This document shows positions 9,840-49,471 of a stretch of DNA of 64,000 nt, piece after piece. The stretch is taken from the IMG/VR virus record IMGVR_UViG_3300018012_000099, one strand, 5' to 3'. The notes beneath the pieces are model-generated. The model had not been told where the DNA came from. It ran no database searches and worked only from the letters and a program-made list of their open reading frames with translations. Position numbers and translations under genes: made by a program. The stretch comes from a virus (taxonomy: Duplodnaviria; Caudoviricetes). Position 1 is the first letter of the stretch; each line of letters starts with the position of its first letter.

Positions 9840-10295
9840 ATGACTAATAGTTATTATAAAAGAAAGAATAGATCAGATTCCTATCAGTGGGTTTTGCTCG
9901 AGACAGTTTGTTCCAACGACATGATGGAGGCTTTCTGCAACGAGGATAGCATTTATAATCGTTTGACCGGAGGTTTCGTATATGACGAGAGAATGTTGGA
10001 GTTGGAAGACCGACTCAAGAAAGAATTTTGGAGAGTGGTAGATACTCTATTAACACCAAGACAGAGAGAGGTGATTCGTCTGTATGCGGATGGTTATACT
10101 CAAATGGAAATCGCTAAGATGTTAAACGTGAACCAAAGTTCAATTACGAAAAGCCTAAATGGTAATGTCGACTATAAAAATGGGAAACGGGTTTATGGTG
10201 GGGCTAAGAAAAAAATTAAAAAGATTCTAGAACACGATGATGTAATTAAAGGCATACTTGATGAAATGGATGCTTTACGTGACGAAAAGTGGTAA
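9840..10295 (+). CDS. Sigma-70 region-4-like helix-turn-helix protein
   Basis: LLTPRQREVIRLYADGYTQMEIAKMLNVNQSSITKSL; no recognisable region 2. Confidence 0.75.
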   Translation: MTNSYYKRKNRSDSYQWVLLETVCSNDMMEAFCNEDSIYNRLTGGFVYDERMLELEDRLKKEFWRVVDTLLTPRQREVIRLYADGYTQMEIAKMLNVNQSSITKSLNGNVDYKNGKRVYGGAKKKIKKILEHDDVIKGILDEMDALRDEKW

Positions 10296-14083: not shown

Positions 14084-14103
14084 TCGTTGATATATTTGTG
14101 GTT

Positions 14104-14829
14104 ATGAGCCAAAAGCGCATTCAATGGAATACTCAATTATTTGTGGAACGGTCCGCCGTCATCCACAATGGCAAGTATAAATATCCAGAAACATATATTA
14201 ATGCATTGACACCGATTGTAATTGAGTGTCCTATACATGGTCATTTTAAGCAGCAGCCACGACACCATTTAAACGGTCGTGGATGTCCAACATGTTTCCA
14301 TGAAAAATCAAGAAGTACTATCGATGATTTTGTTGAAAAAGCAAATGAAATTCATAATGGAAAATATACCTATCCTTGCAATTACATCAATTCTCGTACG
14401 TTAATAACTATTAGCTGTCCAATACATGGTTTGTTTGAGCAGAAGCCGCCTGTACATTTGGAAGGAAAGGGGTGTCCTTCTTGCGGAGATATTGCGAGAA
14501 GCGAATTTATTATGCCAATTATTTCTAAAATGGAAATAGACTGGCTCGATTCTCTTGGAATACCGCAAGAATATCGTCAGGCATCGCTTAAAATTGGTAG
14601 GAAAATAATCAAGGCGGATGCTTTTGTCCCGCCTACTAATACAGTTTATGAATTTTACGGTGACTATTGGCATGGCAACCCATTAAAATTTTCTTCTCAT
14701 TCTATAAATTCTGTTAAGGATAAGACATTTGGTGAGTTGTACCAGGCTACCCTTGCTCGCGAGCAGCTTATTGTTCAGGCTGGCTATAAAATCATATCTA
14801 TATGGGAATTAGACTGGAATAACCAATGA
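14104..14829 (+). CDS. Homing-endonuclease-like protein (repeated CPIHG zinc units plus Vsr/PD-(D/E)XK-like nuclease)
   Basis: Two YxYP...I.CPIHG.F.Q.P..HL.GxGCPxC units; KADAFVP..NTVYEFYGDYWHG...IWE. Confidence 0.8.
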   Translation: MSQKRIQWNTQLFVERSAVIHNGKYKYPETYINALTPIVIECPIHGHFKQQPRHHLNGRGCPTCFHEKSRSTIDDFVEKANEIHNGKYTYPCNYINSRTLITISCPIHGLFEQKPPVHLEGKGCPSCGDIARSEFIMPIISKMEIDWLDSLGIPQEYRQASLKIGRKIIKADAFVPPTNTVYEFYGDYWHGNPLKFSSHSINSVKDKTFGELYQATLAREQLIVQAGYKIISIWELDWNNQ

Positions 14830-15582: not shown

Positions 15583-17475
15583 ATGTCAAAAGAAAAGAAG
15601 CCTATCAGAGACCCGCATTCCAAGAGCACGTTACGTGATATCGTAATGAAGCCTAGTAGTGGCGTGTTTGATATGGCAGGGATTGAAAACCCAAATGAGT
15701 TAAATGAAAAAATCAAGAGGCTCATCAAGTTTTTTGAAGAGTATGGTATTGATTATAATAAGTTAGACGAAGAAAATGTTACCAAGATTGCTTATCCTAA
15801 CTATGATCAATATATGCACATTCCTGGTCAACATAATTTGAAGAGATGGTTAGAAACAATTAGAAATATTTATGTTAGTGAGAAAAGTGGGCTAGATCGT
15901 GCTAATGCTGTTCGTCAAGCGACCACTGGTTGGAATTTAATGGAAACTTATGATTTCTTGAATTGGATGAAGTTCTATCAAGAAGGAGCTCACTTGAAAT
16001 ACAAAACAGCACAACTTTGGTATGAAAATGGTCAGCCAGGTTACTTTTTACAGATCAAACCAGATCCTACTAAACCAGAAGAGTCTGTAGTAGATCATCA
16101 TGCTATTCGTGATACACAAGAAGACATCGAACGTCAGGAAGATAGGAAGCGTATCATTGAGAAGCAACGTCAAAAGATTATCGGTCGTTTAGATTCTGCT
16201 GAAAAGTTATTACGCTCTCCTGAAGGACAAATGTTTGCTGGTCCTGAATTAGAAAATCTTATGGAAGCTATTTATAGTTTGAAAAAGAGAGTGCAGTTAG
16301 TCAATAAACTCAGCACTTCTACTCGTTTGTATGAAGATATGATTGTGCGCGAAGGTAATGTTTTACGTCGTAAGGGTTTTATCAAAGCTGCCGAAGTACT
16401 ATATTCGGTAGCTCAAGCTAATAATCCACCTCCTCCAGGTATTGGTAAACCGGGACCTATTGAAGCATTACCGCAACCAGTTCCACCAGATGATCCATCT
16501 GGCGCTGGACATCCCGGTCTTCCCGGTACACTTCCATCTTTGGGACCGGGTATGCCACAAGCTCCTAAGAGCCCACCTTCTACTAGCGAGACACAACCAG
16601 TCGACTTGAAGCCAGTTCCAGTACCAGATGGCACTATCGCTCAAGGACCGCCTTCTCCTATGCCTGAAAGTGTGCCCAAAGGAATCGCAGAATTTCTTGA
16701 TCAGACCGAGACAGGCGGCAAGACTACCCCTGAGGAATTGGGCGCAGAGGACAATCTAGAAGTGCAGGACACTTTGGAAGTCGAAGATGATCAATTAATG
16801 GTAACAGAAGCTCAAATGGCACCACCAGGTCCAGTAGCAGAGGATGTTCCAATGACCACGGCTCCCCGTCGTCTAAAGCCGTCTGTTTCACCGCCAGTCG
16901 CGGAGAAACTACTTGAAGTGACTGAAGATACTCCTCCAGCCAATGAAGCCGGGGTGGAACAAGCTGCCCCCGCAGCTAAGGATTTCGATCGTATTATCGA
17001 TTCTGCTCTAGCCAATGTGACTGTCAATGATGTGGTAGCTAAACTGGAAGATATTGCCAAAATTTTCAAGACTAGAGAAATTCCTCGTCAATTAGCCATG
17101 GTAGATATGATGTTAGATAGTTTAAATTTGGCCTCTATGTTTCCTACTCTTTCCGAAGCCATCAATAAATCTCTCGAATCTAATAACTATGTCTCTACTC
17201 GTTTGGATGATATTATTGCTAGACTACGTGGAGCCATGGTTAGTAAAGAAGTGGATCTCAAGGGAGGTAGCAATGCTCCTCGCGCTGGCAGTGTAGCCAA
17301 AAATTTACAAGATCAAGCCGATAAAGATGAAGCTCGTAAGAAGATGAGAAAAGACCAAGAGACCGCTGAACTAGAAGGTGGCGCTAAACCATCTCCTCAA
17401 GTAGAAATTGGCGAAGACCTAGGTGCTCAACCTCCAGCCGCTCCGGCTCCACCACCTCCACGCCCAGTAGGCTAA
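15583..17475 (+). CDS. Large hypothetical head-cluster protein with Pro-rich and acidic linkers
   Basis: 630 aa; TKIAY, YKTAQ, SVAQ then a Pro-rich tract; helical-hairpin module at ~16336-16416. Confidence 0.8.
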   Translation: MSKEKKPIRDPHSKSTLRDIVMKPSSGVFDMAGIENPNELNEKIKRLIKFFEEYGIDYNKLDEENVTKIAYPNYDQYMHIPGQHNLKRWLETIRNIYVSEKSGLDRANAVRQATTGWNLMETYDFLNWMKFYQEGAHLKYKTAQLWYENGQPGYFLQIKPDPTKPEESVVDHHAIRDTQEDIERQEDRKRIIEKQRQKIIGRLDSAEKLLRSPEGQMFAGPELENLMEAIYSLKKRVQLVNKLSTSTRLYEDMIVREGNVLRRKGFIKAAEVLYSVAQANNPPPPGIGKPGPIEALPQPVPPDDPSGAGHPGLPGTLPSLGPGMPQAPKSPPSTSETQPVDLKPVPVPDGTIAQGPPSPMPESVPKGIAEFLDQTETGGKTTPEELGAEDNLEVQDTLEVEDDQLMVTEAQMAPPGPVAEDVPMTTAPRRLKPSVSPPVAEKLLEVTEDTPPANEAGVEQAAPAAKDFDRIIDSALANVTVNDVVAKLEDIAKIFKTREIPRQLAMVDMMLDSLNLASMFPTLSEAINKSLESNNYVSTRLDDIIARLRGAMVSKEVDLKGGSNAPRAGSVAKNLQDQADKDEARKKMRKDQETAELEGGAKPSPQVEIGEDLGAQPPAAPAPPPPRPVG

Positions 17476-17489
17476 ATCAAAGCAAATGA

Positions 17490-19208
17490 ATGAAACTACG
17501 CGAACTACTTCAACAATTAGTGGCAGTTCAAAAAGCGATAGGCGCCTCCACGCCCTATATCACTGGAGGAACACCTCGCGATAAGTTTATGAATCGATTA
17601 GATAATGTAGCCGATATTGATATCACCACTGGTGATAAAACGGTAGATTATCTGTCGCAAGAATTTGCTATTCAATTACGTAAGAAATACAACGTCACCC
17701 GAAAGACTATGGACGATGGACATAGTACTATCTTCATTGGTAATTTGAAGGTAGATTTCTCTTCTAATTTCATTGTTAATGATATAGAATCTTATTTACA
17801 AAAAATGGGAATTACTAATCCCACCGATCTACAAAAAGAAATGTTTAGTAGGGATTTTACTTGTAATACACTTTTACTAACTGTAGATTTAAAAAAGCTA
17901 TTAGATCCGACCAAGCGCGGTTTTCGTGACATTAGGGAGAAGAAAATAAAGACTTGTCTTGCTCCAGAAATTACATTAACCTCTAATAGAAATAGGGTGA
18001 TTAGATCTGTCTATTTAGCTTGCAAGTTGGGTTTTGAAGTGGATAAATCTATTATCGATTTTGTGCGCCAAAATCCACAGACAGTTAAAATCTCCACTGA
18101 AAAGGTAATGAATGAGAAATTGAATCAAGCTTTCGAAAAAGATGGAGATAAAGCCGCTAAACTCATCACGGAAATGGGTTTATGGAGTCTAATTCCTATC
18201 ACCGAGAAAGTTTACCCTTACTATATGAAACAAATTAAAGGAAGTGTAAAAGCTCGTGCCGCTCTCTTCAATCGAATTGTTAAACAAGCTGACGATGAGA
18301 ATGACGGACCTAATTTCGATTACGGTAAAGGGTTGTATTCCAATATGGGTAAATACAAGAGTGTTAAAGATTTCGAAGAGCATGCCGACAAAGGTCCGAG
18401 CGCTTTCTTTGCTGATGACAATGAAGATCATATGATGCCGCCCAAAGAACATGGAACCAAAATCTATGATTGGAAGAATAGTCCGTATCAAGGTACGCCA
18501 AAAAAACCAATCAAGGACAAGCATAAGTCCGATGATAATGACTTGGGCACCGGCTTCTACGAAAACTTGGAACACTATCAAAGTGTTAGAGATTTCATCG
18601 AGCATACTCCATTAGGACGCGACCACGGTGCTAAAATAAAGCCAGAATGGGCGCGAGCTAAGGACGTCAATCATATCGATTTCCCGGTAGACGAAGATAT
18701 CAATCATGACAGCCTGATTAGACCGGAAGAAGGTCAGTATCAGCCACCCAGACTAGTGGGTCCGTCTGGCACTGATGATCGAACCGTGCAACCTAGCGAT
18801 ACCGGTTTTGATAGCCCACAAATCGAATTTACCTCTCCACAAATTGCTGGCGAGCATAGCTATACACCATTGGACGATTTCGATGGTAGGTCTAGTGATG
18901 CCCTCAATTTTGGTCGAGATTATGATGACGAATCTGCTCCTGTGGGTCGTACCTGGGATGAAGCTTTCGTCGATGATTTAGAAGCCGAGGTGCGGGAAAA
19001 GGAATGGGATTTAGATAGGTTAGCAGCTAAATATGACAATTTAGACGACATGGATATGTTATCTCCTGCCGAAACTGAAATCTATGGATTACCGGATGGA
19101 GTAGATCCGGAAGCTAAAGATGGTGCTCAAACTATCCAAACTGAAAACCCTTTTACAAATACTCTTGATATGGGTCGTCAAATGTATGAAGATAAGTGGA
19201 ACATTTAA
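17490..19208 (+). CDS. Divergent CCA-adding/poly(A) polymerase-family nucleotidyltransferase with a long acidic C-terminal extension
   Basis: YITGGTPRD..DIDITT (GGxxRD, DxD), SRDFTCN; EDxxR replaced by SNRNR; extension begins at IVKQADDE. Confidence 0.85.
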   Translation: MKLRELLQQLVAVQKAIGASTPYITGGTPRDKFMNRLDNVADIDITTGDKTVDYLSQEFAIQLRKKYNVTRKTMDDGHSTIFIGNLKVDFSSNFIVNDIESYLQKMGITNPTDLQKEMFSRDFTCNTLLLTVDLKKLLDPTKRGFRDIREKKIKTCLAPEITLTSNRNRVIRSVYLACKLGFEVDKSIIDFVRQNPQTVKISTEKVMNEKLNQAFEKDGDKAAKLITEMGLWSLIPITEKVYPYYMKQIKGSVKARAALFNRIVKQADDENDGPNFDYGKGLYSNMGKYKSVKDFEEHADKGPSAFFADDNEDHMMPPKEHGTKIYDWKNSPYQGTPKKPIKDKHKSDDNDLGTGFYENLEHYQSVRDFIEHTPLGRDHGAKIKPEWARAKDVNHIDFPVDEDINHDSLIRPEEGQYQPPRLVGPSGTDDRTVQPSDTGFDSPQIEFTSPQIAGEHSYTPLDDFDGRSSDALNFGRDYDDESAPVGRTWDEAFVDDLEAEVREKEWDLDRLAAKYDNLDDMDMLSPAETEIYGLPDGVDPEAKDGAQTIQTENPFTNTLDMGRQMYEDKWNI

Positions 19209-20908: not shown

Positions 20909-22786
20909 ATGACAACATCTGAGAAAGATATTTTTCTAAAATTGAAAAGACAGCTGCTTATGCTTGATCCGGTCTCTTTTTGCCAGACCTATCTCAATTT
21001 AGATGGAAAGCCTTTTACTCTAAGTGGTAATGGATACAAGCCTTTCTGTGACATTTATCGATATATTGGTATCAAGGCTTTAGAACGTAACTCTAAACCC
21101 GTTATTATGGTTAAGGGTCGTCAGGTTGGCGCCACCACTATGGCTAGTGCCTTAGAAATGTATTTCATGGGCTCTGGTATGTTTGGTAACGGCGAAAGAC
21201 CACCCATTCGCGTTATTCACACTTTTCCACAATTGGAACTGGCAGCGGCGTATTCTAAGACCAAGCTCAACCAAATGATCATTACCTCTCTCGTCCCGGA
21301 GGGCGTGGAACAAAAGAGCGGCTCCAAACCGAAGTCCTACATGCAACTCTTGTTGGACCAAAGCGCTTCAGCCAGCGAGTCCTTACATTTTAAGCAGTTC
21401 GCGGGTGGTAATCACTTATGGGTAGAATCTACTGGCGTTGATGCAGACCGTATCATGGGTCGTACCGCTGATGTTATCTTTTTTGATGAAGTACAGAAGA
21501 CCACTGATTTGGCATTAGGTAATGCTCTCAAGATTTTAACTACTGCTAAGTATGGTGAGCCATCTAAAGGGGTGAGAATTTATTTTGGTACGCCTCGTCG
21601 TAAAGGTTCTGATTTCCACAAGATGTGGCAGAACTCTTCTCAACAATATTATTACTTAGGTTGCGAAAACTGCGAAAAACACTTCCCACTCTACACTCCT
21701 GGCTCTAATAATTGGGAAAAAATCTGGATTCACGGCTACACTGTCAAATGTCCACTCTGTGGACATGAACAAAACAAATTAGAAGCTGCCGAGCGCGGCA
21801 AGTGGGTTGCCTTTAAAGATCCTAATGATGATGATTGTAACATGATTGGTTTCCATATCAATCAACTTTACATGCCGATGTTTACTCGTGAAGCTATTGA
21901 GAATGAAAAGCCGGGTAAGCACCCCATTAATACCGAACGTGTTTTTATGAATGAAGTTTTGGGAGAATTCTTTCAAGGAGATTCTAGTCCCATTACTCCT
22001 GACGAAGTGCGTCTTTTTTGTGCCGATCATGAAAGAAAGTTTTCTCCTAGTATCGTTCCAAGTAAGGGTTTAATGCAGCAGATTGCCGTGTTGGGTATCG
22101 ATTATGGTGCCCGTTCTGATTTGGAACAATTAGCTCAACCAGATAAGATTACCAGTCGCGGTCAATCCTATAGTACTGCAGTGGTGCTACTGTCTAAAGG
22201 TCCCGGTTTACTATCTATTGAATTTGCGATGAAATTCAAAAGAAACGATCCTGCTCATAAGAAAGGCATCATAGACCAGTTGATTAGACAATACAATATT
22301 CAACTAGCAGTAGGAGATATTGGTTACTCTAATGACTTTTCTCAAGACCTACAAAATGTCTATGGAGATAAGTATTTGGTTTCTCGTGCTCATCCGTCAG
22401 TCAATGAACATGTTAAGTTTAGACATGATACTTTTCCAAAAGAAATTCTTTTCGAAAGAGACTATTATATTGCTCAGCTCTATGAACAAATGAAAAAAGG
22501 AATGATTAGATTTCCTTATGGTGATTATGAAAGAATTGCTTGGTTGATAGAACATTGTTGTAGTATGGAGATTAAACCTTCTATTTCTAGAACTGGTGGC
22601 GATCCTAGTGTCCATTATGTCAAAGGTGGTACACCAAATGATGGTTTCATGGCTTTACTTAACGCTTATATTGCTTATAAGTTCTTGGTAACCAGAGGGT
22701 TTACTCACAATAACCCTTTACTACAGAATGAAAGAAACATTAATAAACCAATGGTTTTGAGTGGATATGTGTCCAGAAAATTCTAA
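20909..22786 (+). CDS. terL: Terminase large subunit (lambda gpA-like architecture with zinc insert)
   Basis: Walker A-like VKGRQVGATT, Walker B RTADVIFFDEVQ, CENC...CPLC insert, nuclease VLGIDYG, C-terminal PNDGFMAL. Confidence 0.92.
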   Translation: MTTSEKDIFLKLKRQLLMLDPVSFCQTYLNLDGKPFTLSGNGYKPFCDIYRYIGIKALERNSKPVIMVKGRQVGATTMASALEMYFMGSGMFGNGERPPIRVIHTFPQLELAAAYSKTKLNQMIITSLVPEGVEQKSGSKPKSYMQLLLDQSASASESLHFKQFAGGNHLWVESTGVDADRIMGRTADVIFFDEVQKTTDLALGNALKILTTAKYGEPSKGVRIYFGTPRRKGSDFHKMWQNSSQQYYYLGCENCEKHFPLYTPGSNNWEKIWIHGYTVKCPLCGHEQNKLEAAERGKWVAFKDPNDDDCNMIGFHINQLYMPMFTREAIENEKPGKHPINTERVFMNEVLGEFFQGDSSPITPDEVRLFCADHERKFSPSIVPSKGLMQQIAVLGIDYGARSDLEQLAQPDKITSRGQSYSTAVVLLSKGPGLLSIEFAMKFKRNDPAHKKGIIDQLIRQYNIQLAVGDIGYSNDFSQDLQNVYGDKYLVSRAHPSVNEHVKFRHDTFPKEILFERDYYIAQLYEQMKKGMIRFPYGDYERIAWLIEHCCSMEIKPSISRTGGDPSVHYVKGGTPNDGFMALLNAYIAYKFLVTRGFTHNNPLLQNERNINKPMVLSGYVSRKF

Positions 22787-22860
22787 AAGTCTGAAATATT
22801 AGCCCTGACTGATATATCATATATTGAGTATAGTAGAGGGTGTAGTGAAAATGAGGATTC

Positions 22861-24756
22861 ATGGCTAGTAATAAACCCCCTAAACAATGGCAGGGACCAT
22901 CAAAATCAGACCAATATATGGATAAGCGTTCAACTGTTCCACAAGTTAGCGCTATTATGGCCCAAGGTGTTTCCAAAGAAAGAAGAGCGATTCTTTCTGA
23001 TGAAGTTGATCAGGGTGCATTTCGTGATGGTTCTGGACCTACCTACAGTCAGAGAGTAGCAGAAAATCTTGAAACTGCTAACGCCCGTGTCGTGGCATCT
23101 GTTGGTGGATTCAAAAAGAACGCTCAAGTAGTTAGTAGTGTGGGCGGTATGTTCCGTGGTATTCACGGAGATTCTGTCAAACAAACTCCTGAAGTATATT
23201 CTCCTCTGTGGCTCAATTCCAACCTTAATCTACCCCGTGATAGGGCTACTATCAATGCTTGGTGTCGTAGCTTTTATGCTTTGAATCCTTTCGTACATAA
23301 TGCTATCAATCTTCACAGTACTTACCCAATTAGTAAGCTAAGCATTAAGTGTCCTAATAAAGATATTGAGAAGTTCTTCAACGATATGATTGAAGAAATC
23401 GATTTGATGAACATATGTGTACAAATCGCTCAGGAGTACTGGTTACTCGGTGAAGCCTTTGTATATTCTGAACTAGATGAAAGCAAAGGTAAGTGGAGTC
23501 GTTTGCTGATTCAGAACCCAGACTTTATGGTGGTTAAGCGTACCGTAGTGGCTAATGAACCTATTATCCAATTGCGTCCAGATCCTAATCTACAAAAGAT
23601 TATCTTCTCTAACCGTCCTAGTGATATTGAACAGCGCAAACAATTAAACCAACATATCATTGATTCGGTGCGTCGTGGTGAAAATATTCCTCTAGACAAC
23701 TTTCATGTTTCTCATTTGGCTCGTCGTATCAGTCCTTATGAAATCAGAGGTACTGGACTACCAGTCTGTATTTTTCGTCAATTGATGTTATTTGATAAGT
23801 TACGCGAATCCAAATATGCTCAAGCTGATAATATGATCAATCCACTCACCATCGTTAAGATTGGTTCGGCTGATTATAAACCTACTTTCGCCGACTTAGA
23901 AGCTTGGAGAAGTACTTTCGAAGAAGCTCAATATGATAAGGATTTCAAGATTTTTACTCATGAAGGCGTAGATGTTACTAGAGTAGGTTATGGTCAAGGT
24001 ATCTACGATATTTCTGGTGATATTACTCAGTTAGTTAAAGAAATCTACGTGGGACTTCAGGTTCCACCGGTGTTGATGGATGGTGGTGCCGATACTACTT
24101 ACGCCAATGGTGGTGTAGCTTTAGATGTTTTGCGTCAGCGTTACATGCAGTTTCGTAATATGATGTCCCAGTGGTTGAAACGCAAAATCTTTGCTCCTAT
24201 CTCCAAAATTCAAGGATTCTACGATTATTCCGGTGGAGAGAAGCAGCTCATCGTTCCAGAGATTGACTGGAATCATATGTCCTTGTTCGATGCCGGAGAT
24301 TACATTAATAGCATCGTCACTTTAACTCAAGGCACTGATGAAGCTAAGAGAGTTTCTTTGCATACCCTATATCGTTCGATCGGTTTGGAATTTGAAGATG
24401 AAACTCGTAAAATTCGCAAGGAAGCTATCCAAAACGCCATTGCCAAAAAGGAAAAGGCAGCTTTGGAGGCTATGGACCTCAACGCTCTTCGTGCTCTGGA
24501 TGAGGAAGATGAAATTCCGGAACCAGAAAAGAAGCCAGGACAAGAAGAACAGCCAGTTCCGGGCGAAACTCCAGGTGGCGCACCACCTCCAGGTGGTATG
24601 CCAGATTTGGGATTGCCGAGTGGTCCGCCTCCAGGTCCGCTTCCAGGTGGAGGAGCCGCAGCGCTTCCTGCGGCACCTCCAGGTGGCGAGGCGCCCCCGG
24701 GCGGTGGGACACCCCCAGCCGCTCCGCCAGTAGGCGGACCACCGCCCGGTCCATAA
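22861..24756 (+). CDS. Portal protein with Pro/Gly-rich C-terminal tail
   Basis: Directly after terL; WCRSFYALNPFVHNAINLH, EYWLLGEAFVY, FHVSHLAR..SPYEIRGTGL; FKKNAQ near the N-terminus. Confidence 0.85.
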   Translation: MASNKPPKQWQGPSKSDQYMDKRSTVPQVSAIMAQGVSKERRAILSDEVDQGAFRDGSGPTYSQRVAENLETANARVVASVGGFKKNAQVVSSVGGMFRGIHGDSVKQTPEVYSPLWLNSNLNLPRDRATINAWCRSFYALNPFVHNAINLHSTYPISKLSIKCPNKDIEKFFNDMIEEIDLMNICVQIAQEYWLLGEAFVYSELDESKGKWSRLLIQNPDFMVVKRTVVANEPIIQLRPDPNLQKIIFSNRPSDIEQRKQLNQHIIDSVRRGENIPLDNFHVSHLARRISPYEIRGTGLPVCIFRQLMLFDKLRESKYAQADNMINPLTIVKIGSADYKPTFADLEAWRSTFEEAQYDKDFKIFTHEGVDVTRVGYGQGIYDISGDITQLVKEIYVGLQVPPVLMDGGADTTYANGGVALDVLRQRYMQFRNMMSQWLKRKIFAPISKIQGFYDYSGGEKQLIVPEIDWNHMSLFDAGDYINSIVTLTQGTDEAKRVSLHTLYRSIGLEFEDETRKIRKEAIQNAIAKKEKAALEAMDLNALRALDEEDEIPEPEKKPGQEEQPVPGETPGGAPPPGGMPDLGLPSGPPPGPLPGGGAAALPAAPPGGEAPPGGGTPPAAPPVGGPPPGP

Positions 24757-26153: not shown

Positions 26154-27281
26154 GTGGCTAATTTGGGTTCTAACTTTTATTCTAAGTTAGTACAGCTAGC
26201 CGCAGAAACAGGAATGAAGCCAGAAGATATTTTGGCAGTCATGGTTTCTGAGTCCGGTGTTAATCCTGCTGCACATAATCCTCACGGAGGTGCTACCGGT
26301 TTGATGCAATTCATGCCACAAACCTTACCAAGTGTTGGTTTTCACGGTAGCCCGTCTGATTTTGGTATGCTGTCTGGTGAGGATCAATTACCCTATATCA
26401 AGAGATTGATTGAGGGTAATATGCGTTTGAATGGTGGTCCTTTTACTAACGCTGCCCAATACTATGTAGCTGTTTTTTGGCCGGTAGGTCTTAAGTTACC
26501 TGGAGTACGTCATGGTAATCCTAATACACCTATTGTAGAAGAGAATCCAGAATCAATAGGCGGATACAGTAAAAAATATTACGATATGGGAATTAAAATT
26601 CCTGTGGGTCAAGAACGTGCTGCTTATAAAGCGAACCCACTTTTTCATGGTAATATTCCGGGCACTATCACTTACGGCGATATGATGAAGCAAATAGATA
26701 AGAATAGGAGAAATCCATTATATTCTAAAGCTTTGATGGCTATGAACGAACAAACTGGATATGAACCTGATACCATATCTCTTACTCCTATGTTGGCTCA
26801 ACGTACCAAATTACCCACACATCAATCAAATAATTTTATGGATATTTTAAATCAGTTTGTACATTACCTATCGACAGTTGCCTCTGAACAGCATACAAGT
26901 AAGAAGATATACAAGAAAATGTTACCCAATCATGATATACTTATTCAAATTACTGCGCCCGATTATACTAGCGCTATTGAATTTTCTCGTATTCTTTGTG
27001 CGGCTCTTGATGAAGAAGTGCAGGCCAGTGCGTATCCTCATACCGATGGTAGTCAAATAGTGGAAGTAGAATGCTCTATTCCTGGACCAGCTTTAGGATG
27101 TTTACAAGCTGTAGAACAATTAAATCAATCTCTTACTGAAACTTTTAAGGACGCTACCAAGAAAGTGGGTGGAATTGTAGTTAAAACTCACTGTATAATG
27201 AATAAAAAGTCATCATATCAACAAATCAGCTTGAGGACTGCTGAGACTAATTATAGAAAATTCCTCCTAAAATTTATATAA
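26154..27281 (+). CDS. Lytic transglycosylase (SLT/lysozyme-like) fused to an unknown C-terminal domain
   Basis: LAVMVSESG.NP.A.N..GGATGLMQFMP (catalytic Glu and GLMQ motif); GTG start after AGGAGG. Confidence 0.88.
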   Translation: MANLGSNFYSKLVQLAAETGMKPEDILAVMVSESGVNPAAHNPHGGATGLMQFMPQTLPSVGFHGSPSDFGMLSGEDQLPYIKRLIEGNMRLNGGPFTNAAQYYVAVFWPVGLKLPGVRHGNPNTPIVEENPESIGGYSKKYYDMGIKIPVGQERAAYKANPLFHGNIPGTITYGDMMKQIDKNRRNPLYSKALMAMNEQTGYEPDTISLTPMLAQRTKLPTHQSNNFMDILNQFVHYLSTVASEQHTSKKIYKKMLPNHDILIQITAPDYTSAIEFSRILCAALDEEVQASAYPHTDGSQIVEVECSIPGPALGCLQAVEQLNQSLTETFKDATKKVGGIVVKTHCIMNKKSSYQQISLRTAETNYRKFLLKFI

Positions 27282-27722: not shown

Positions 27723-28466
27723 ATGAGAACACTCGATGAGATCGTACAACTTGCCGACAACTTTGAACAACGTTGTCAAGATAGTTTGGTAAAGATTGCG
27801 GTGGTCCGCAAATTACCAAACGGCAAGTATCGTGTACTTTCTCAAAAGGGTAAGAACTTAGGAACCTTCGATTCGGAAAAGGCTGCTAACAAACATCTCA
27901 GACAGGTGGAGTATTTCAAACACCTAGATAAGTCGCACGCCGAGGACGATACCTCCGTTATCGATTTGACTGATGCCGACGAATTTGCCTATTCTGCCAT
28001 CATGCGTAAAATGCGTGAAAAGGCTTCTAAAGAGCAGGTAACCATTTTCCTCAAGCTATTCAAAGCCGAATTCGATCGTGCCGTCAAAGCTAAGTTGAAG
28101 AAGCCAGAGCGTTTGGCTTTACAAAACGCTCTGGTCAAGTTCAACAAACTACATAAGATTAAGCTAAGCAAGAAGATGGTCAAGAGTGCAGCCGTTAGCG
28201 AGTTGGGAGACTCCAGGGCTGTTGGCGCCTATTTGGCTAATATCGTCACTTTTATTCTCAATCGTGTGCCACCTGACCATAGACTTATCGCTCGCGATAG
28301 ACTCAAGCAAAAGTTTGCTTTAATGAATACAGATGACATCGCTTCCAAACATTTGCCCGACTCCGCAGCCGTTGCTCAATCTATTACCTTTGTCAAGCAC
28401 GTGCTATTCAATCATGACTCCAACTACATTAAAGAAGTTCTTAACGCCCTGGTGAGCGCACTATGA
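27723..28466 (+). CDS. Hypothetical head-cluster protein with a small basic domain
   Basis: LVKIA followed by VRKLPNGKYRVLSQKGKNLGTFDSEKAANKHLRQVEYFKH; MVKSAA internal. Confidence 0.75.
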   Translation: MRTLDEIVQLADNFEQRCQDSLVKIAVVRKLPNGKYRVLSQKGKNLGTFDSEKAANKHLRQVEYFKHLDKSHAEDDTSVIDLTDADEFAYSAIMRKMREKASKEQVTIFLKLFKAEFDRAVKAKLKKPERLALQNALVKFNKLHKIKLSKKMVKSAAVSELGDSRAVGAYLANIVTFILNRVPPDHRLIARDRLKQKFALMNTDDIASKHLPDSAAVAQSITFVKHVLFNHDSNYIKEVLNALVSAL

Positions 28467-29248
28467 TACACCGATTGCGTAAAGTCGCAGACGGTTTGTT
28501 CCGTGGTAGCGCTCCGACACCAAAGGATGTTTTATGGCTCAAAGAAATTTTAGGCATCAAGAAGATTGTGTCTTTAGATAAAGAGGCTGGTGATAAAATT
28601 GATCGTGCTTGTAAAATGTTGGGTATTGATCATGTCAAAGCTTATATAGAAGGTGTAGATAGAAAGTCTTTGTATAATGTTTTGAGTCAAAATTTGAAGC
28701 ATCTATTAATAGATGGTGGTCCTACATATTTTCATTGTCATGAAGGTAAAGATAGAACTGGTTTACTTGCTGCTTTATTTAAGTGTAAATATATGGGCAT
28801 GGATCCGGAGGCTGCTATTACTGAAGCCAAATCTTTAGGATTTGGTGTTGGTATTCCGCCAGAGATTACTCACCTATATGAGAAGTTGATTCGCGCCTGT
28901 AAACCGCATAAAGATCCAGATGTTAATAATGCTGATATAGTCGGTAATGAAAGAGAGTATATCAGTGATAATCGCGATACTTTCTTGGATGAGAGCCGTC
29001 AAAGCTCTTGGGCTCCATACCTAGATCATACTCGTCAAAACCCAATGGATGCCGTTTATGTTTATATAAATGACCAATCTCCTACTCGTGAAAATTACCA
29101 ACAAACTTGGAAAGAGCCGAAGGAGAGGTTGGAAGAAGCAATAAATTCGCATGAAGATACCATACCTCAAGTTGGCACTTTTAATAATGATGCGGGCGCT
29201 AGAGGATTTGGACCCACCGAAAACTATAGTGGATTTTTTTATGATTAA
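28463..29248 (+). CDS. Dual-specificity/tyrosine phosphatase (PTP superfamily)
   Basis: LFRGSAP, P-loop FHCHEGKDRTG (CX5R); C-terminal extension. Confidence 0.9.
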   Translation: MIHRLRKVADGLFRGSAPTPKDVLWLKEILGIKKIVSLDKEAGDKIDRACKMLGIDHVKAYIEGVDRKSLYNVLSQNLKHLLIDGGPTYFHCHEGKDRTGLLAALFKCKYMGMDPEAAITEAKSLGFGVGIPPEITHLYEKLIRACKPHKDPDVNNADIVGNEREYISDNRDTFLDESRQSSWAPYLDHTRQNPMDAVYVYINDQSPTRENYQQTWKEPKERLEEAINSHEDTIPQVGTFNNDAGARGFGPTENYSGFFYD

Positions 29249-30146: not shown

Positions 30147-33100
30147 ATGCCATTTAACAAATACGGTGAAACTGTTGAGATTAGAATTGAAAACACGGAA
30201 TCGTGTATTCCAGCAGTGAGTCCTGAGATTTTGGAAAACTTCCAGAAGTTTGCTACCAATCTGAAAAAGATTGCGCCAAAGGCAGAAGACTTCTTGTACT
30301 TTTCTGCGGTTATGATGCACGCTGCTGAAGCAGCCGCCCTCAATGACGATGGCACCCCAAGAATGACCGCCAAGGGCGAAGCCGCCCAAGTGAGCTGGGA
30401 TAAAAGCAATAATACTTGGAAATGGGTATCTAATGACCCTAACATTAAGCCATATAAGAATTCTAATGGCGACATTTTCCCCGAAGAAGAATTAGTTAAA
30501 GCACATAAAAAGTGGGTTCACAAGCCTCTTTGCATCGATCATAAGTCCAGTTCGGTAGATCATGTAAGAGGTTTTATTGTTGATACATATTATGATCGCA
30601 ATCTCAAGCGAGTGATTGCGTTATGCGCTTTGGACAAGGCAGGCTATCCTCAATTAGCTAGAAACGTCTCTACGGGCATTTCTAACTGCGTCTCCATGGG
30701 TACGGCTGTGGGTCGTGCTATCTGCACCGATTGCTCCCGTGTGGCTCGTACCGAACAAGATTTTTGTTCTCATATGAAGAATAAGTCTTGCTACGGTGAA
30801 ATCAATATAGACTTGAATCCAATAGAATTATCAATAGTAATGAATGGAGCTGATCAAAGAGCTACCATTAAGCATGTTCTAGCTGCTGCCAATACCCTCA
30901 ATACTTATGTTGAGAATAAGCAAAAGGAATTAGCCAAATTAGCTGATCTGAGTTTTTCAGCTAGTTTGATCGTAAATGACCCACAAGGTATTGAAGGTGG
31001 TGGTTCATCTACCTTCCAGGTAAATGGAAATAATATAGATAAATTCAAGGCCGATCTTGATGAAGCCTTCCAAAGATTGACCGAAATAGCCAATGCTGCA
31101 AAAAAATCTGAAAAAGATACTAATCTTTCAGCATTTAATCAATCGTCGGGCTCCATCTCTATGGATGAAAGTGCCGAAACAGATTCTGGATTGGCTCTCC
31201 AAACTCCGCAAACCGTTAGGTTTGCATCTGCTGATGAGGCAGGTATCAGTGAGCTTCGTGAAGTTACAGCTGCTATCGAAGCCAAACTCAACCAAATGAA
31301 ACACAGCTTGGATAAGTTAGCACAAACTTCTATAAAAACACAAGAGGAAACAATGACTGGATCAAACGAACTGAATAAGAAGGGTTACTACCAGGGAGCC
31401 GGCGGCGTGAATGAGCCAACTCCAGGTCAAGCAAAATATCCTAAGGACCCCCTCAACGAACAACTTCGTGAGAATGAGGATAAACAAATGGTAGGTCAAC
31501 CACCTTTCCCAGGTGTGGGCCCAGTTGATGGAATGCACCCTTCTCCGGGTTCTGCGGATCCATCTGATGAACTACAACGTAAGAAGATGTTAGCCCGTGC
31601 CGAAGCTGAAGAGCGCGCATTGCGTCGTCAAGCTATCGTCAACTTGGCTAAGGAAGCCTTGCAGAATAAGGAAGCTTATTTCCAAGGTGGCGGTGGTGTT
31701 AACGAACCCACTCCAAACAAGCCAAAGTATCCTAAGGACAAGCTCAACGAAGAGTTGCGTGAGTACGAAGATAAGCAGATGGTTGGTCAACCACCTTTCC
31801 CGGGCGTCGGTCCAGTCGATGGCTTACATCCTTCTCCTTCTTCCGCTGATCCTAAGGACGAGTTGAAGCGTAAACAAATGCTCGCTCGTGCTAATGCTCT
31901 CACTGGTCGTTTTACCAAAGCTGCTAATGAAGACGGCACTCTCAACCAGGGCAACAGTGCTTGGGAAATCTTCCTCGGCGAGAAGCTCTTGTTAACTGCT
32001 TCGGTTAATGATTTATCCGCTGGTCGTCCAGAACTATTTTACGATCAAATTGCTACCAAGCCATTCGGTCTACAATTGATTGAAAAGATTAGGACTAAGG
32101 GCGCTGCTAGCGTAGCAAATCTAGTCAAAAAGGGTCAAGTTCCACCTCCTCCAGCAGGTGGTGATGTAGGTGCTCCACCAGCAGGTGATATGGGAGCTCC
32201 AGCAGGTGGTCCTCCAGAGGATACAGGTAAGTCTGGTGATCCAAAGCAAACTGCCATGGAACTAGCTGAAAAGGTTAGAGATTTATCTTCTGATCTTGTG
32301 GAAGCTGTTCGTGCTCTAACTGGTGAACAAGCTGAAATGGGTGCAGGTGATGAAGGTTCTAGCGCCCCTCCAACCGCAGGTGGTGCTCCAGCTATGGCTG
32401 ATGACAGCAAAATGTCCTCTGCCTCTTTTAGCGCCACTACTTTAAATACTCTCAGACGAGAACTAAATAGCGCGTTAACTCACGCTATGAAGGAAGCCGT
32501 TGCAGAACTCAACGATCACAAACAAGAACTTGATATGATCGTCGGTTTGTTCGACAAGGGTGCCGTAGTTGATTCTAACAAGGACACCGTGAGCGCTCTC
32601 GCCGACGATGCTTTTAATGAGACTAAGGCTGCTGTTGCTGATGGCTTTAAGCTAATGAATGCTTTCGTCAAGTACGCTCGTGGTACTGAAGCTATTGTCA
32701 AGCGCGCTGAGATTGAGTCAGAATTACAAGCACTAGGTGCTGATGAAGGAGATGATATGAACGATGCCAAGAAGTCGAAGGACTCCTCTAAGGACAGTCA
32801 CTCCGCTGACGCCGGTGACTTGATGGGTCTAATTAACGACACTAATGCAGATTTAGATGCTGTTCACAGCCTAATGAGCGATGACAACGATCATGTTGGT
32901 GAAGAGCCACATGACGAAGCCATGGAACATCTAGAGGGCTTAGCCGCACTAGATGACGAAAATGGTGCCGTTGAAGTCAAGACTCCAGAACAAGCCGCCC
33001 AAGTAACTAAGGCTAACCCAGCAGCTAGTGTAGTGGTTCAAGCTTCTTTGGATACCCGAGAAGGTCGTTCCGCACTACGCGCCAAGTTAGCTGCCGATGC

Positions 33101-33815
33101 TCTTGGTAAGGAAGATGATGGAGAAGTTCAAGATGCTTCCAAGATTCAGTTCAGCGATATGCTAGATCAAGCTGACGGTCTTGCTGATGGTCAGACCCAC
33201 TTAGATGTCAAGCCGTCCGATAGCCTCGGATTGGTGGAAACTCTACCAGAAGAAAACAAGGCTATGTTGGAAGTCGCTAAGGCTCCACCAAAGGTTCGTA
33301 AGGAAGCCGAAGCTATTCAAAAGCTTGTTTCCGAAGGTTCCTTGGATCCAGCCGATCTAGATGCTTTAGTAGCAGAAGGTTTGGACAAGGATGCAGTGGC
33401 ATACTGGAAGAAGTATTACAGCCAAACTGATGGCGGTTCTGAATTCGCCAGTGAATTGGTTAAGGAGCATGTGAAGGCTCAACTCGAAGAAGAGTTCAAC
33501 AAGTTCCGTGTTAAGATTGCCAGAGCTTACGAGCTAGCCTATGATATGGCTGAACGTGGTATGTGCAACGGCGACAAGGGCTCTATCTCCCTACAAGTTG
33601 AGGAAATCATGAAGTTTGATGATCCAAGCTTCGAATCTCTTAAGAGAGTGGTTGCCAGAAACCCAGTAGTCGGTATGAAGAAGCAAGCTGGACGCCTTCC
33701 ACTAGTTGGCGTACGTGAGAACGACGAGCTATCCTCCACTGCCAGTGTTGAAGAACAAGGTACGGAATATGATAGACTATCCTCTATGTTCGGTAACAAA
33801 AAGGGCTCATTCTAA
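30147..33815 (+). CDS. Prohead maturation protease fused to a scaffold/core polyprotein
   Basis: N-terminal domain NSNGDIFP..EL...KPLCIDH...VRGFIVD...VSMG...ELSIV..GAD (HK97/assemblin-like His/Ser) with a Cys/His insert; long acidic/helical C-terminal region; lies between portal and capsid genes. Confidence 0.85.
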   Translation: MPFNKYGETVEIRIENTESCIPAVSPEILENFQKFATNLKKIAPKAEDFLYFSAVMMHAAEAAALNDDGTPRMTAKGEAAQVSWDKSNNTWKWVSNDPNIKPYKNSNGDIFPEEELVKAHKKWVHKPLCIDHKSSSVDHVRGFIVDTYYDRNLKRVIALCALDKAGYPQLARNVSTGISNCVSMGTAVGRAICTDCSRVARTEQDFCSHMKNKSCYGEINIDLNPIELSIVMNGADQRATIKHVLAAANTLNTYVENKQKELAKLADLSFSASLIVNDPQGIEGGGSSTFQVNGNNIDKFKADLDEAFQRLTEIANAAKKSEKDTNLSAFNQSSGSISMDESAETDSGLALQTPQTVRFASADEAGISELREVTAAIEAKLNQMKHSLDKLAQTSIKTQEETMTGSNELNKKGYYQGAGGVNEPTPGQAKYPKDPLNEQLRENEDKQMVGQPPFPGVGPVDGMHPSPGSADPSDELQRKKMLARAEAEERALRRQAIVNLAKEALQNKEAYFQGGGGVNEPTPNKPKYPKDKLNEELREYEDKQMVGQPPFPGVGPVDGLHPSPSSADPKDELKRKQMLARANALTGRFTKAANEDGTLNQGNSAWEIFLGEKLLLTASVNDLSAGRPELFYDQIATKPFGLQLIEKIRTKGAASVANLVKKGQVPPPPAGGDVGAPPAGDMGAPAGGPPEDTGKSGDPKQTAMELAEKVRDLSSDLVEAVRALTGEQAEMGAGDEGSSAPPTAGGAPAMADDSKMSSASFSATTLNTLRRELNSALTHAMKEAVAELNDHKQELDMIVGLFDKGAVVDSNKDTVSALADDAFNETKAAVADGFKLMNAFVKYARGTEAIVKRAEIESELQALGADEGDDMNDAKKSKDSSKDSHSADAGDLMGLINDTNADLDAVHSLMSDDNDHVGEEPHDEAMEHLEGLAALDDENGAVEVKTPEQAAQVTKANPAASVVVQASLDTREGRSALRAKLAADALGKEDDGEVQDASKIQFSDMLDQADGLADGQTHLDVKPSDSLGLVETLPEENKAMLEVAKAPPKVRKEAEAIQKLVSEGSLDPADLDALVAEGLDKDAVAYWKKYYSQTDGGSEFASELVKEHVKAQLEEEFNKFRVKIARAYELAYDMAERGMCNGDKGSISLQVEEIMKFDDPSFESLKRVVARNPVVGMKKQAGRLPLVGVRENDELSSTASVEEQGTEYDRLSSMFGNKKGSF
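31377..31892 (+). repeat. 75-codon in-frame direct repeat (31377-31601 and 31668-31892)
   Basis: KKGYYQGAGGVNEPTP...DKQMVGQPPFPGVGPVDGMHPSP...MLARA versus KEAYFQGGGGVNEPTP...DKQMVGQPPFPGVGPVDGLHPSP...MLARA. Confidence 0.95.
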
Positions 33816-46880: not shown

Positions 46881-46955
46881 ATATTCTTATTGTCTCTTGT
46901 GTGAAAATTTTCCATAGAAAAATGAGTGATATTCCTGTATTTCTTTGGAGATTAT

Positions 46956-48178: not shown

Positions 48179-49471
48179 TTAACGTAATACCGCTTGTCGA
48201 AGCATTTCTAACAGATATTCTTTATCATTATGCTCGGGATGTTCCAAAATTTCCTGATAGCAAACATCTAAAAGTGCCTTCATTCTGGGACCGGGGGTCA
48301 TTCCCGCTTTTAGAAGATCGTCTCCGTTAATTTGCATAGCCTTACGAGAATGTACCGTGGTATCTTGGTATTTTGCCAGCAGCGTTTCCGCAGGCACGTC
48401 CATGGCTCTGGTTAACTTTATAAATTCATTATAGGTATGCTCCCATGGGTCGGGGGCTTCATTCTTGAACTTTGCTATAAACTTCCTGTAGGGAAACGCT
48501 CCGTCTTCTAGGTGCTGAAAATCTAACAACCTTTGCAGTAGGAAAGCAACTCTCTTGATGGATTTGTTTGAGAATTTAAGATCAATAAGCTCCTGCTCCA
48601 CTAGTAAGTGTGGTAACTTGTTGTAGAGTAAGGCTAAACGGGTTTCTAACTCACCCGCACATTGATTCAGTGACGGAATTAGGGGAAGTTGTCGTCCCAT
48701 CAAGCATGGACAGACAATATCCAAGGCTCCGGACATGTGTAGGTACATAACTCCAGCATGAGGGCGTGAAGTCATAAGAGTTTTGCTTAGTTCGTCATTG
48801 ATACGTTCTTTGGAAACCTTCTTCAAGGTTTCCAAAGAATCTATCATTCCCTGAAAGGTTTCATCATGGATAGCGAAGCCAAAACGTGCAGCGAAACGAG
48901 CTGCTCGCATAATACGTAAACCGTCTTCTTGGAATCGTTTTTGTGGAACCCCCACAGCACGAATGAGACCAATCTTAATGTCTTCGTATCCGTGAAAAGG
49001 ATCCACGCCCACATTGCTTACTGGATCGAAGGCTATGGCGTTGATGGTAAAATCTCGACGAGCCAAATCTTCCGTGATGTTTGTAACAAATTGGACCGAT
49101 GCCGGACGACGTCCATCTCGATATTCACCTTCTACTCGAAAAGTGGTGACTTCGAAATGATTTTCCACGCCTTCGCCCATGCATACCGTCACTGTGCCAT
49201 GTTGCAGTCCCGTAGGAATGGTTCTTTCAAACAGTTGGATGACTTGTTCAGGCGAAGCGTTAGTAGTAATGTCCCAATCTTTGGGCTGTAGTCCAAGATG
49301 TAGGTCTCGTACGCACCCTCCTACGATGTAGGCTTGAAAACCTGGATTCTGTAGAATGTTACAAATTTCGATAGCTTTTGGATGAATTAGGGGCTGAAAA
49401 AGACGATTATGTGACATATGCGGTAACATAAAGTTTAAAATTTGGGTGTCAAGCCCTTTCTTCAGCCGCAC
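48179..49471 (-). CDS. cca: CCA-adding enzyme (class II tRNA nucleotidyltransferase)
   Basis: AYIVGGCVRD, DWDITT, EVTTFR.EGEY.DGRRP loop, DLARRDFTINAIA, EDGLRIMRAARF. Confidence 0.92.
   Translation of the reverse strand: MRLKKGLDTQILNFMLPHMSHNRLFQPLIHPKAIEICNILQNPGFQAYIVGGCVRDLHLGLQPKDWDITTNASPEQVIQLFERTIPTGLQHGTVTVCMGEGVENHFEVTTFRVEGEYRDGRRPASVQFVTNITEDLARRDFTINAIAFDPVSNVGVDPFHGYEDIKIGLIRAVGVPQKRFQEDGLRIMRAARFAARFGFAIHDETFQGMIDSLETLKKVSKERINDELSKTLMTSRPHAGVMYLHMSGALDIVCPCLMGRQLPLIPSLNQCAGELETRLALLYNKLPHLLVEQELIDLKFSNKSIKRVAFLLQRLLDFQHLEDGAFPYRKFIAKFKNEAPDPWEHTYNEFIKLTRAMDVPAETLLAKYQDTTVHSRKAMQINGDDLLKAGMTPGPRMKALLDVCYQEILEHPEHNDKEYLLEMLRQAVLR

Follow-up and report, generated by a model that had tools for sequence, protein, structure and literature searches.

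This work concerns a 572-residue protein, referred to as P0001, whose gene lies in a 64,000-nucleotide stretch of viral DNA (the window; IMG/VR virus record IMGVR_UViG_3300018012_000099, Caudoviricetes). P0001 is a member of an extensive and hitherto uncharacterised clade of minimal class II nucleotidyltransferases from uncultivated huge phages. The head-and-neck catalytic core of these proteins is intact and under strong purifying selection, and P0001 belongs to neither the CCA-adding nor the PcnB (bacterial poly(A) polymerase) family. The fold and the chemistry are known, and what is new is the nucleotide-selecting template, the minimal architecture and the coupling to the capsid-assembly machinery. 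Judging from gene order, module boundaries and shared motifs, P0001 is probably packaged in the capsid and passed on to the next host. The complete proposal, that of a capsid-targeted, protease-released RNA 3'-tailing enzyme that would be ejected into the host and make A or C tails there, is put forward tentatively, as a whole that falls somewhat short of probable.

The enzyme module

The only Pfam match of P0001 is the PolyA_pol head domain (PF01743, residues 23-153; 44.8 bits against a cut-off of 23, E 1.9e-11), and in PHROGs it matches families named 'tRNA nucleotidyltransferase'. In an AlphaFold2 (AF2) model built with a 150-sequence alignment, residues 1-260 are modelled at a predicted local distance difference test (pLDDT) of 95-98, and a helix spans residues 242-270. 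Foldseek matched about 240 residues of A-, CC- and CCA-adding enzymes and of poly(A) polymerase (PAP), at 17-22% identity. The structural matches stop at about residue 240; body and tail domains are missing, and the remainder of the protein is disordered and unrelated. A first-pass annotation, made from the sequence itself, had assigned P0001 a class II CCA/PAP fold with intact catalytic carboxylates. The carboxylates are indeed intact, and the fold has to be narrowed to its head and neck (~240 residues).

Sixteen positions are nearly invariant across 150 diverse sequences, namely G26, G27, R30, D31, D42, D44, T46, D89, S120, R121, D122, N126, D139, D147, R169 and R172. At least 90% conservation was found for G26, G27, R30, D31, D42, D44 and T46, and likewise for all three metal-binding carboxylates. 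D89 aligns with the Glu of FEVTTFR in a canonical paralog of the same phage (P0002, the product of its cca gene), and the flexible loop expected next is absent. A catalytic set so nearly invariant points to an active enzyme and not to a relic, and the module is probably an active class II nucleotidyltransferase core.

When curated family models were applied, P0001 scored 50 bits with the CCA equivalog NF009814 (cut-off 290), 45 bits with TIGR02692 (cut-off 439), and 33.4 and 15 bits with the PcnB models TIGR01942 and NF008634 (cut-offs 305.65 and 702, respectively). P0002, to which P0001 is 21% identical, passes NF009814 with 319.6 bits; the phage is thus equipped with a normal CCA enzyme, from which P0001 is distinct. 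The gene of P0002 lies on the opposite strand, embedded among structural genes, and the 64-kb window contains no tRNA genes. P0001 does not fit the definition of a CC-adding enzyme either, in which the loop is deleted and EDxxR and the body and tail are kept, since in P0001 these are missing too. The earlier opinion that P0001 is probably not a CCA enzyme is thus borne out by its scores with the CCA and PcnB models, by the lack of body, tail, loop, template Glu and template Asp, and by the separate cca of the phage; it also agrees with a published library in which only Asp and Arg were kept at two template positions (PMC11784652).

A word-index search gave 197 relatives of P0001, many of them on contigs of 200-511 kb, and an exhaustive search gave 1,972 proteins at E <= 1e-3. 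An identical protein is found on 18 contigs, the longest of 245 kb, and the 14 matching DNA sequencing runs are all from wetland metagenomes, which is where the DNA originates. No RNA run was listed with them, which has no bearing on expression. When the enzyme module was compared by tblastn with 50,697 phage records, only weak or partial matches were obtained, among them Lak phages (33% over residues 114-209) and Aeromonas phage 65 (25%).

Altered nucleotide-selection motifs

All the motifs quoted in the first-pass annotation are found where it had placed them, including SRD (residues 120-122), SNRNR (165-169) and IVKQADDE (263-270). Its description of RRD changed to SRD, EDxxR changed to SNRNR and a missing flexible loop is likewise confirmed: in HMMER alignments to solved CCA enzymes, RRDFTxN is matched by SRDFTCN and EDplRilR by SNRNRVIR, and in pairwise alignments the E.YRDGRRP loop of P0002 has no counterpart in P0001.

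Chance cannot account for these features, given their conservation throughout the family. SRDFTCN is present in 106 of the 107 relatives covering this region, and Ser occupies the first position of RRD in 140 of 142 family members. The Arg normally present at this position may act in the discrimination of the ribose; published data on such a role were sought in the accessible papers and not found. As for the second motif, nearly all close relatives have [ST]N[KR]NRV[IV]R. At the position of the template Asp (166), 69 of 74 close relatives have Asn, and 27 of 52 distant relatives, which are mostly ~245-residue proteins, still have Asp; the position of the template Glu holds Ser or Thr in the close clade and is variable elsewhere. 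Since distant relatives often keep the Asp and the Ser is near-universal, SRD is an old, family-wide trait and the change from Asp to Asn a derived trait of the clade of P0001.

The consequences of such changes can be weighed against published work. In the A. aeolicus CC-adding enzyme, the template Asp and Arg bond the 4-NH2 and N3 of CTP, and the T and D loops of the tRNA are gripped by the tail domain (PMC3925840). For the human enzyme, a library was randomised at all three template positions, with codons that included Ser, Thr and Asn; selection for A or CCA repair returned only D165 and R168 at the base-reading positions, whereas the Glu position tolerated Asp, Gly and Gln, and the pairing of this Glu with a loop Arg was proposed as the lever for the switch from C to A (PMC11784652). 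In E. coli PAP, the E211A and D212A mutations left A-specificity nearly unchanged, whereas R215A led to random incorporation (PMC2532741). In P0001, the loop and its Glu partner are lost together, the Asp is lost and the Arg is kept. From this combination we infer that P0001 can neither switch specificity nor make CCA, and so would have a single nucleotide specificity, and that it would still select the base in the manner of PAP through Arg169, with A or C the likeliest choice because this base-reading Arg is retained.

A switch to U or G specificity was considered and rejected, as the base-reading Arg is invariant and the Arg alone sets the selectivity of PAP (PMC2532741). The 'new specificity' is not supported in the form proposed in the first-pass annotation, given this same Arg and the Asp kept by distant relatives.

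The acidic extension as a separable partner protein

The first-pass annotation had treated the region following the enzyme as an acidic extension of about 300 residues. It is present and acidic; what had been missed is that in many relatives it is the product of a separate gene. In L002, a contig of 485 kb, a 252-residue enzyme reading frame overlaps by 11 nt a 423-residue frame homologous to the extension of P0001. An 11-nt overlap is found in L004 too, where the nucleotidyltransferase is of about 250 residues and a shorter partner still contains GPGAGFYSNLDKYKSVMDF; in L005 the partner is more diverged. About 20 independent partner proteins start with M-x-x-K-[KF]-A-Y-F-Q-G-G-G-G and end in YEDKWNI, and a second group starts at the helix R-A-x-L-F-x-x-I-x-K-x-A, which marks a second junction.

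In most fused relatives, the nucleotidyltransferase is followed by K-[KV]-A/YFQGGGGVNEP...GPGTGWH..YKSVxDF (module B; a slash marks the junction) and by the RAxLFxRIxKxA helix, after which come optional Cys-rich or repeat inserts, the motif DENDGPNFDYGxGLYxNMxKYxSVxDF, the acidic region and YEDKWNI. P0001 is devoid of module B, and its enzyme runs directly into the helix, where R256 is conserved at 93%, A257 at 81%, K265 at 96% and Ala or Gly at position 267 at 93%. The twice-repeated unit G[KT]G[LF]Y.N...Y.SV.DF.EH that had been reported from the sequence lies exactly where it was described, and its Y-K-S-V-x-D-F core occurs in one to three copies in most relatives. Within the C-terminal ~180 residues, the short motifs NxIDFPxD, L.FGRDY, GLPDG and NP.YGT are conserved, and the terminus itself, YEDKWNI (nt 19185-19205), is invariant; YEDKWNI, GLPDG, DFPxD and FGRDY are found in no other protein of the window.

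AF2 predicts the extension to be disordered, with a few local helices, whether or not the enzyme domain is included; repeat unit 1 forms local helices at pLDDT 75-83. The model of the extension by itself (predicted template-modelling score 0.22) has the same semi-confident local segments as the full-length model, and therefore offers no indication of docking of the repeats onto the enzyme. Prediction of a complex between residues 1-252 and 253-572 returned a score of 0.00, with the partner below pLDDT 50, which is evidence for neither side. The two parts differ sharply in charge, with a pI of 9.55 and a net charge of +13 for residues 1-267 and a pI of 4.36 and a net charge of -39 for residues 268-572, and split enzyme and partner pairs have the same polarity. 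Searches of the partner and flanking proteins against Pfam, NCBIfam and PHROGs found nothing, and the ESM Atlas offered no usable match to a split partner (P0050).

Several relatives (P0066, P0118, P0099 and P0200) carry large inserts in the middle of the extension, consisting of LRV/HEAT-like repeats, Cys-rich zinc-ribbon-like segments, PF14284 or PF18905. To judge from these sequences, the middle of the partner or extension behaves as a permissive linker.

Coupling to the head-assembly genes

The gene of P0001 occupies a fixed place. In order, the locus encodes proteins of ~530, ~260, ~237, ~250 and ~630 residues, the nucleotidyltransferase (with or without the partner fused to it), proteins of ~320 and ~222 residues, the terminase large subunit (TerL), the portal, a protein of ~430 residues, an SLT-domain protein and, further on, a Cys-dependent phosphatase. 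This order is identical in the window and in the related loci L001 and L002, including the position of the nucleotidyltransferase two genes upstream of TerL and the portal; in L004, the upstream order matches as far as the contig reaches, as it ends before TerL. The major capsid protein (MCP; phrog_2522, at 44269) and a tail protein (at 46926) are encoded downstream in the window. The closest relative of this MCP is gp27 of Bacillus phage G (54% identity); a tblastn search of phage G did not find the P0001 gene, and a multi-omics paper on this phage makes no mention of such an enzyme.

A more specific link came from a search of partner proteins against all open reading frames of the window. 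A 1222-residue protease-scaffold polyprotein contains two tandem cassettes of ~75 residues, beginning at residues 411 (nt 31377) and 508 (nt 31668), which are homologous to module B: the head of module B is 65-77% identical to them over 26 residues, and about 75 residues can be aligned. Each cassette starts with K-x-[AG]-Y-[FY]-Q-G-x-G-G-V-N-E-P, and its second half aligns with the GPGxGWH..YKSVxDF unit; the two repeats of P0001 are therefore incomplete, diverged cassette copies. At least 694 polyproteins share the cassette region at 72-89% identity, far higher conservation than a mere linker would show. One or two copies were found in 117 of 120 polyproteins among the matches listed, and the cassette is present in 89 of 267 nucleotidyltransferase-family and partner proteins. 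Sixteen contigs carry both genes, as counted by pairing records of identical length.

The polyprotein gene may itself be a site of insertion in some phages. Two of its homologues, P0354 and P0378 (~1570 residues), contain intein and homing-endonuclease domains (PF05203, PF14528, PF14890), which suggests that inteins have inserted in this head gene.

The junctions between modules offered a candidate cleavage code. The motif [hydrophobic]-x-K-x-A was counted and compared with the expectation from composition-preserving shuffles. The 10.4-44.3 kb morphogenesis block has 50 occurrences against 20.1 expected (2.5-fold), and the early block 6 against 4.7; twelve are in the 1222-residue polyprotein. 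Many fall within residues 5-40 of proteins of the head block, the site at residues 22-26 of the MCP being one of them, and these N-terminal sites are positionally conserved in the L001 and L002 orthologues. P0001 has exactly one, I-V-K-Q-A267/D, at its module boundary, and in split relatives the gene boundaries fall exactly at the two K-x-A junctions, as would be expected if the mature products were the same whether cleaved or separately encoded. This pattern is suggestive of K-x-A being the cleavage code of the prohead protease. The proposed code differs from those of T4 gp21, which cuts after Glu in L/I-x-E, and of phiKZ gp175 (S/A/G-x-E).

Proposed mechanism and alternatives

In the mechanism that we propose, the partner would co-assemble with the scaffold and protease core by means of its scaffold-like cassette, bringing the enzyme into the prohead. 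Cleavage at K-x-A by the prohead protease, in P0001 after Ala267, would then release a basic 267-residue enzyme from the acidic tail, which may also mask the enzyme electrostatically. The freed enzyme would stay with the DNA and be ejected into the next host, where it would add untemplated nucleotides, most likely A or C, to RNA 3' ends. Likely targets would be host mRNA, tagged in this way for decay, or tRNA acceptor ends, either to block or to repair them. The suggestion of a virion-packaged, protease-activated transferase, already present in the first-pass annotation, gains indirect support, drawn from sequence, in the conserved morphogenesis-block position, the K-x-A junctions with gene fission and fusion at them, the enrichment of the motif and the cassette common with the polyprotein. 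The contrast in charge between the two halves and the presence of further enzymes in the head block, an SLT-domain protein and a Cys-dependent phosphatase, also speak for the mechanism. The most far-reaching formulation would be that of a new head-loading route, in which a disordered acidic protein copying a scaffold cassette carries a re-templated enzyme that is released at K-x-A. P0001 would then be the first RNA 3'-tailing enzyme to be delivered by a virion; it would act on RNA or tRNA of the host in the first seconds after DNA entry and choose its nucleotide by Arg plus Asn and not Arg plus Asp. In this full form the idea is doubtful.

Several points weigh against this mechanism. P0001 lacks the K-x-A-YFQGGGG head of the cassette and keeps only its diverged second half, so that most relatives have a stronger link with the scaffold than P0001 has. 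Where the two genes are split, the 250-residue enzyme is not covalently tied to its partner, and packaging would need non-covalent binding. A position in a late operon is by itself no proof of packaging, and the K-x-A excess may partly reflect amphipathic helices, for which the shuffles did not control. As to the reaction, Asn166 could alter the choice of base and Ser120 that of sugar, which makes A or C a guess. Finally, full-length P0001 gave nothing at E 1e-5 in tblastn against the 50,697 phage records, and no cultured member was found among them.

An alternative that accounts for part of the evidence is a late cytoplasmic enzyme that is not packaged. The nucleotidyltransferase would be potentially toxic and would act on phage or host RNA, with the acidic partner as an inhibitor or adaptor that would resemble an antitoxin or mimic a nucleic acid. 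Enzyme and partner are oppositely charged in fused and split forms alike, which would fit such a pair, as would the tight translational coupling through the 11-nt overlap and the disorder of the extension with or without the enzyme. Furthermore, Gp22 of Klebsiella phage fHe-Kpn01, a short nucleotidyltransferase-like protein, is toxic when expressed (PMC7291057). However, the cassette common with the protease-scaffold polyprotein, the gene splits at K-x-A junctions and the fixed position in the morphogenesis block would be left unexplained, and P0001 matched no defence system in PADLOC and no toxin-antitoxin family. We regard this alternative as unlikely.

The loss of every RNA-positioning domain, together with the constant pairing of the enzyme with a protein that has a conserved Tyr/Ser motif, even in relatives of ~45% identity, raises another possibility: the enzyme might transfer a nucleoside monophosphate to the Tyr or Ser of Y-K-S-V-x-D-F in its partner, or perhaps to the scaffold cassette, as a step in head assembly or maturation. 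The Pol-beta-fold enzymes GlnE, GlnD and MntA do nucleotidylate Tyr, although we know of no class II CCA/PAP-type enzyme that acts on proteins. The scaffold cassette is devoid of Tyr and Ser at the positions equivalent to Y-K-S (GSADPSDEL), and the basic surface of the enzyme (pI 9.55) suits a nucleic acid better. We thus hold protein modification to be quite improbable.

P0001 might also be a partial tRNA 3'-end enzyme, of a CC- or A-adding kind, which would carry out repair with the canonical cca, and maybe with the head-block phosphatase, as a counter-defence against host toxins that damage tRNA ends. Loss of the flexible loop is a hallmark of CC-adding enzymes (PMC2532741), the best sequence match of P0001 in the PDB is a split-function enzyme (cca2 of 9ns4), RNA-repair nucleotidyltransferases are frequent in jumbo phages (PMC7824862), and the phosphatase gene lies 9 kb downstream. 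Nevertheless, P0001 has no body and tail for the tRNA elbow, the tail being the part that binds the T and D loops (PMC3925840), and its template Asp is replaced, whereas in the human enzyme no substitute for Asp emerged under A- or CCA-repair selection (PMC11784652). It also scores far below every curated tRNA nucleotidyltransferase model, in a phage that already has a full CCA enzyme. This possibility appears very improbable.

That P0001 is a catalytically dead remnant, kept in a head protein for structure or as a mere passenger, would agree with the loss of the first RRD Arg, the EDxxR Glu and Asp, the flexible loop and the body and tail, but is scarcely credible when the carboxylates, the GG-R-D triphosphate motif, R121/D122, R169 and R172 are at least 90% conserved in the 150 diverse sequences, the substituted residues are themselves conserved, and the module also occurs as a free-standing protein of ~250 residues.

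Relation to known systems

P0001 has its nearest counterparts in the class II tRNA nucleotidyltransferases, represented by the CCA-adding enzymes of G. stearothermophilus (1miv) and T. maritima (3h37), the A-adding enzyme of A. aeolicus (1vfg/4wby) and the CC-adding structures 3wfo-3wfs. It has the same head and neck fold over ~240 residues, the same motif A (GGxxRD...DxD), the third carboxylate, the R-D of motif B, the aspartates of motif C and the Arg of motif D; as in CC-adding enzymes, the flexible loop is lost. It differs in the absence of body and tail, in SRD for RRD and [ST]NxxR for EDxxR, at 17-22% identity, in having a disordered acidic protein as its fused or coupled partner, and in being encoded in a head-assembly block.

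The superfamily core is also that of bacterial PAP I (PcnB, PDB 3aqk-3aqn), in which the flexible loop is dispensable. The residues kept in P0001 follow the pattern established for PAP, which tolerates E211A and D212A and owes its base selectivity to the motif D Arg (PMC2532741); unlike P0001, PAP keeps EDxxR and RRD and has a C-terminal RNA-binding region.

Closer in size are short phage PolyA_pol-head proteins (~170-300 residues), such as the 'tRNA nucleotidyltransferase' of Autographiviridae and clusters of ~245-residue proteins in the Atlas, which are viral, minimal and limited to the head, or head and neck, as in P0001. The large Atlas clusters of ~245-residue proteins are 96-100% viral and auto-annotated as CCA enzymes. 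Gp22 of fHe-Kpn01, toxic to its host, is one of these short proteins (PMC7291057). They are remote from P0001 (at most 19% identity in BFVD), and nothing in their descriptions pairs their genes with a scaffold-cassette protein or places them before the terminase. The accessible literature contains no biochemical characterisation of them, and a literature search found no paper on the P0001 family or on a characterised head-and-neck-only class II enzyme.

With regard to packaging, large phages are known to hold capsid-targeted, protease-processed internal proteins, as is the case of T4 Alt and the other T4 internal proteins and of the ejection proteins of phiKZ/SPN3US-type phages. P0001 resembles these internal enzymes in its location among head genes, in a candidate targeting element in common with the scaffold, in a candidate protease site and in the basic nature of the enzyme. 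It has no homology to them, and its own packaging is putative; moreover, its candidate targeting part differs in being C-terminal, very long, acidic, disordered and sometimes a separate protein. For phiKZ/SPN3US-type phages, an ejection-protein bolus is described (PMC5694885).

Features and neighbouring genes

The features of P0001 and the genes on which the analysis relies are collected in Table 1.

Table 1. Coordinates in the window of P0001, its modules and motifs, and related genes.
Feature	Coordinates	Strand	Evidence
P0001, whole open reading frame: minimal class II nucleotidyltransferase and acidic disordered partner module, 572 aa	17490..19208	+	Open reading frame list, translation
Nucleotidyltransferase module, aa 1-252, class II CCA/PAP head and neck, basic	17490..18245	+	PF01743, AF2, Foldseek
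Motif A: GGTPRD (aa 26-31) and DIDIT (aa 42-46), catalytic D42/D44	17565..17627	+	Regular expression, 150-sequence conservation
D89 in LKVDFSS, third catalytic carboxylate position	17754..17756	+	Conservation, alignment with paralog
Motif B variant SRDFTCN (aa 120-126), for RRDFTxN	17847..17867	+	Regular expression, alignments
Motif D variant SNRNRVIR (aa 165-172), for EDxxRxxR; R169/R172 nearly invariant	17982..18005	+	Regular expression, alignments
Junction helix SVKARAALFNRIVKQA (aa 253-267), ending in candidate prohead-protease site I-V-K-Q-A/D	18246..18290	+	Conservation
Repeat unit 1, GKGLYSNMGKYKSVKDFEEH (aa 279-298)	18324..18383	+	Regular expression, cassette alignment
Repeat unit 2, GTGFYENLEHYQSVRDFIEH (aa 353-372)	18546..18605	+	Regular expression, cassette alignment
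Acidic, mostly disordered C-terminal region (aa 391-572), pI 4.05	18660..19205	+	Conserved motifs, low pLDDT
Terminase large subunit (20909-22786) and portal (22861-24756), two genes downstream	20909..24756	+	PF05876, phrog_675, phrog_16240
Protease-scaffold polyprotein, 1222 aa, head maturation protease domain at aa ~105-214	30147..33815	+	phrog_18299
Canonical cca paralog P0002, 430 aa, with GGCVRD, flexible loop E.YRDGRRP, RRDFTIN and EDGLR	48179..49471	-	NF009814

Some other genes of the head block deserve a comment. The Cys-dependent phosphatase (28463-29248; Y_phosphatase2/3, also matched by a polymorphic-toxin DSP-PTPase model) is conserved in L001 and L002, lies ~9 kb downstream of the nucleotidyltransferase gene and has an N-terminal candidate site, MIHRLRKVA/D; this phosphatase, too, may be packaged. 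A protein with an SLT lytic-transglycosylase domain (26154-27281), encoded immediately after the portal-proximal genes, shows weak likeness to the phrog_342 internal virion proteins with an endolysin domain, and is a candidate ejected cell-wall enzyme. The portal ends in a Pro/Gly/Ala-rich low-complexity tail of ~90 residues, and the 630-residue protein encoded upstream of the nucleotidyltransferase (15583-17475) has a long Pro-rich central and C-terminal region; low-complexity, Pro-rich tails seem to be typical of the head proteins of this phage.

Between two syntenic head-block genes, the reading frame at 14098-14829 encodes an endonuclease (phrog_681 'endonuclease', phrog_559 'HNH endonuclease') that is absent at that place in L001 and is replaced by a DUF723 protein in L002, so that a mobile homing endonuclease seems to have inserted there. 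The morphogenesis block is immediately preceded by the gene of a 151-residue protein (9840-10295), which contains only a sigma-70 region 4 / helix-turn-helix domain and is conserved in this position in L001 and L002.

Significance

Class II nucleotidyltransferases are the textbook case of protein-templated nucleotide choice. The family of P0001 is a natural one, with hundreds of members, in which the tRNA-measuring half, the C-to-A switch (loop and Glu) and the template Asp are gone and the catalytic residues are all kept. It thus constitutes a natural experiment on what the core alone does and on what the Arg alone selects. The coupling to a scaffold cassette, together with the gene splits at K-x-A, provides a testable model for the loading of cargo enzymes into the capsids of huge phages, and K-x-A is a candidate for the cleavage code of a prohead protease that has not been studied so far. 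Should the enzyme indeed be delivered at infection, RNA tailing would join the short list of activities that phages inject into their hosts.

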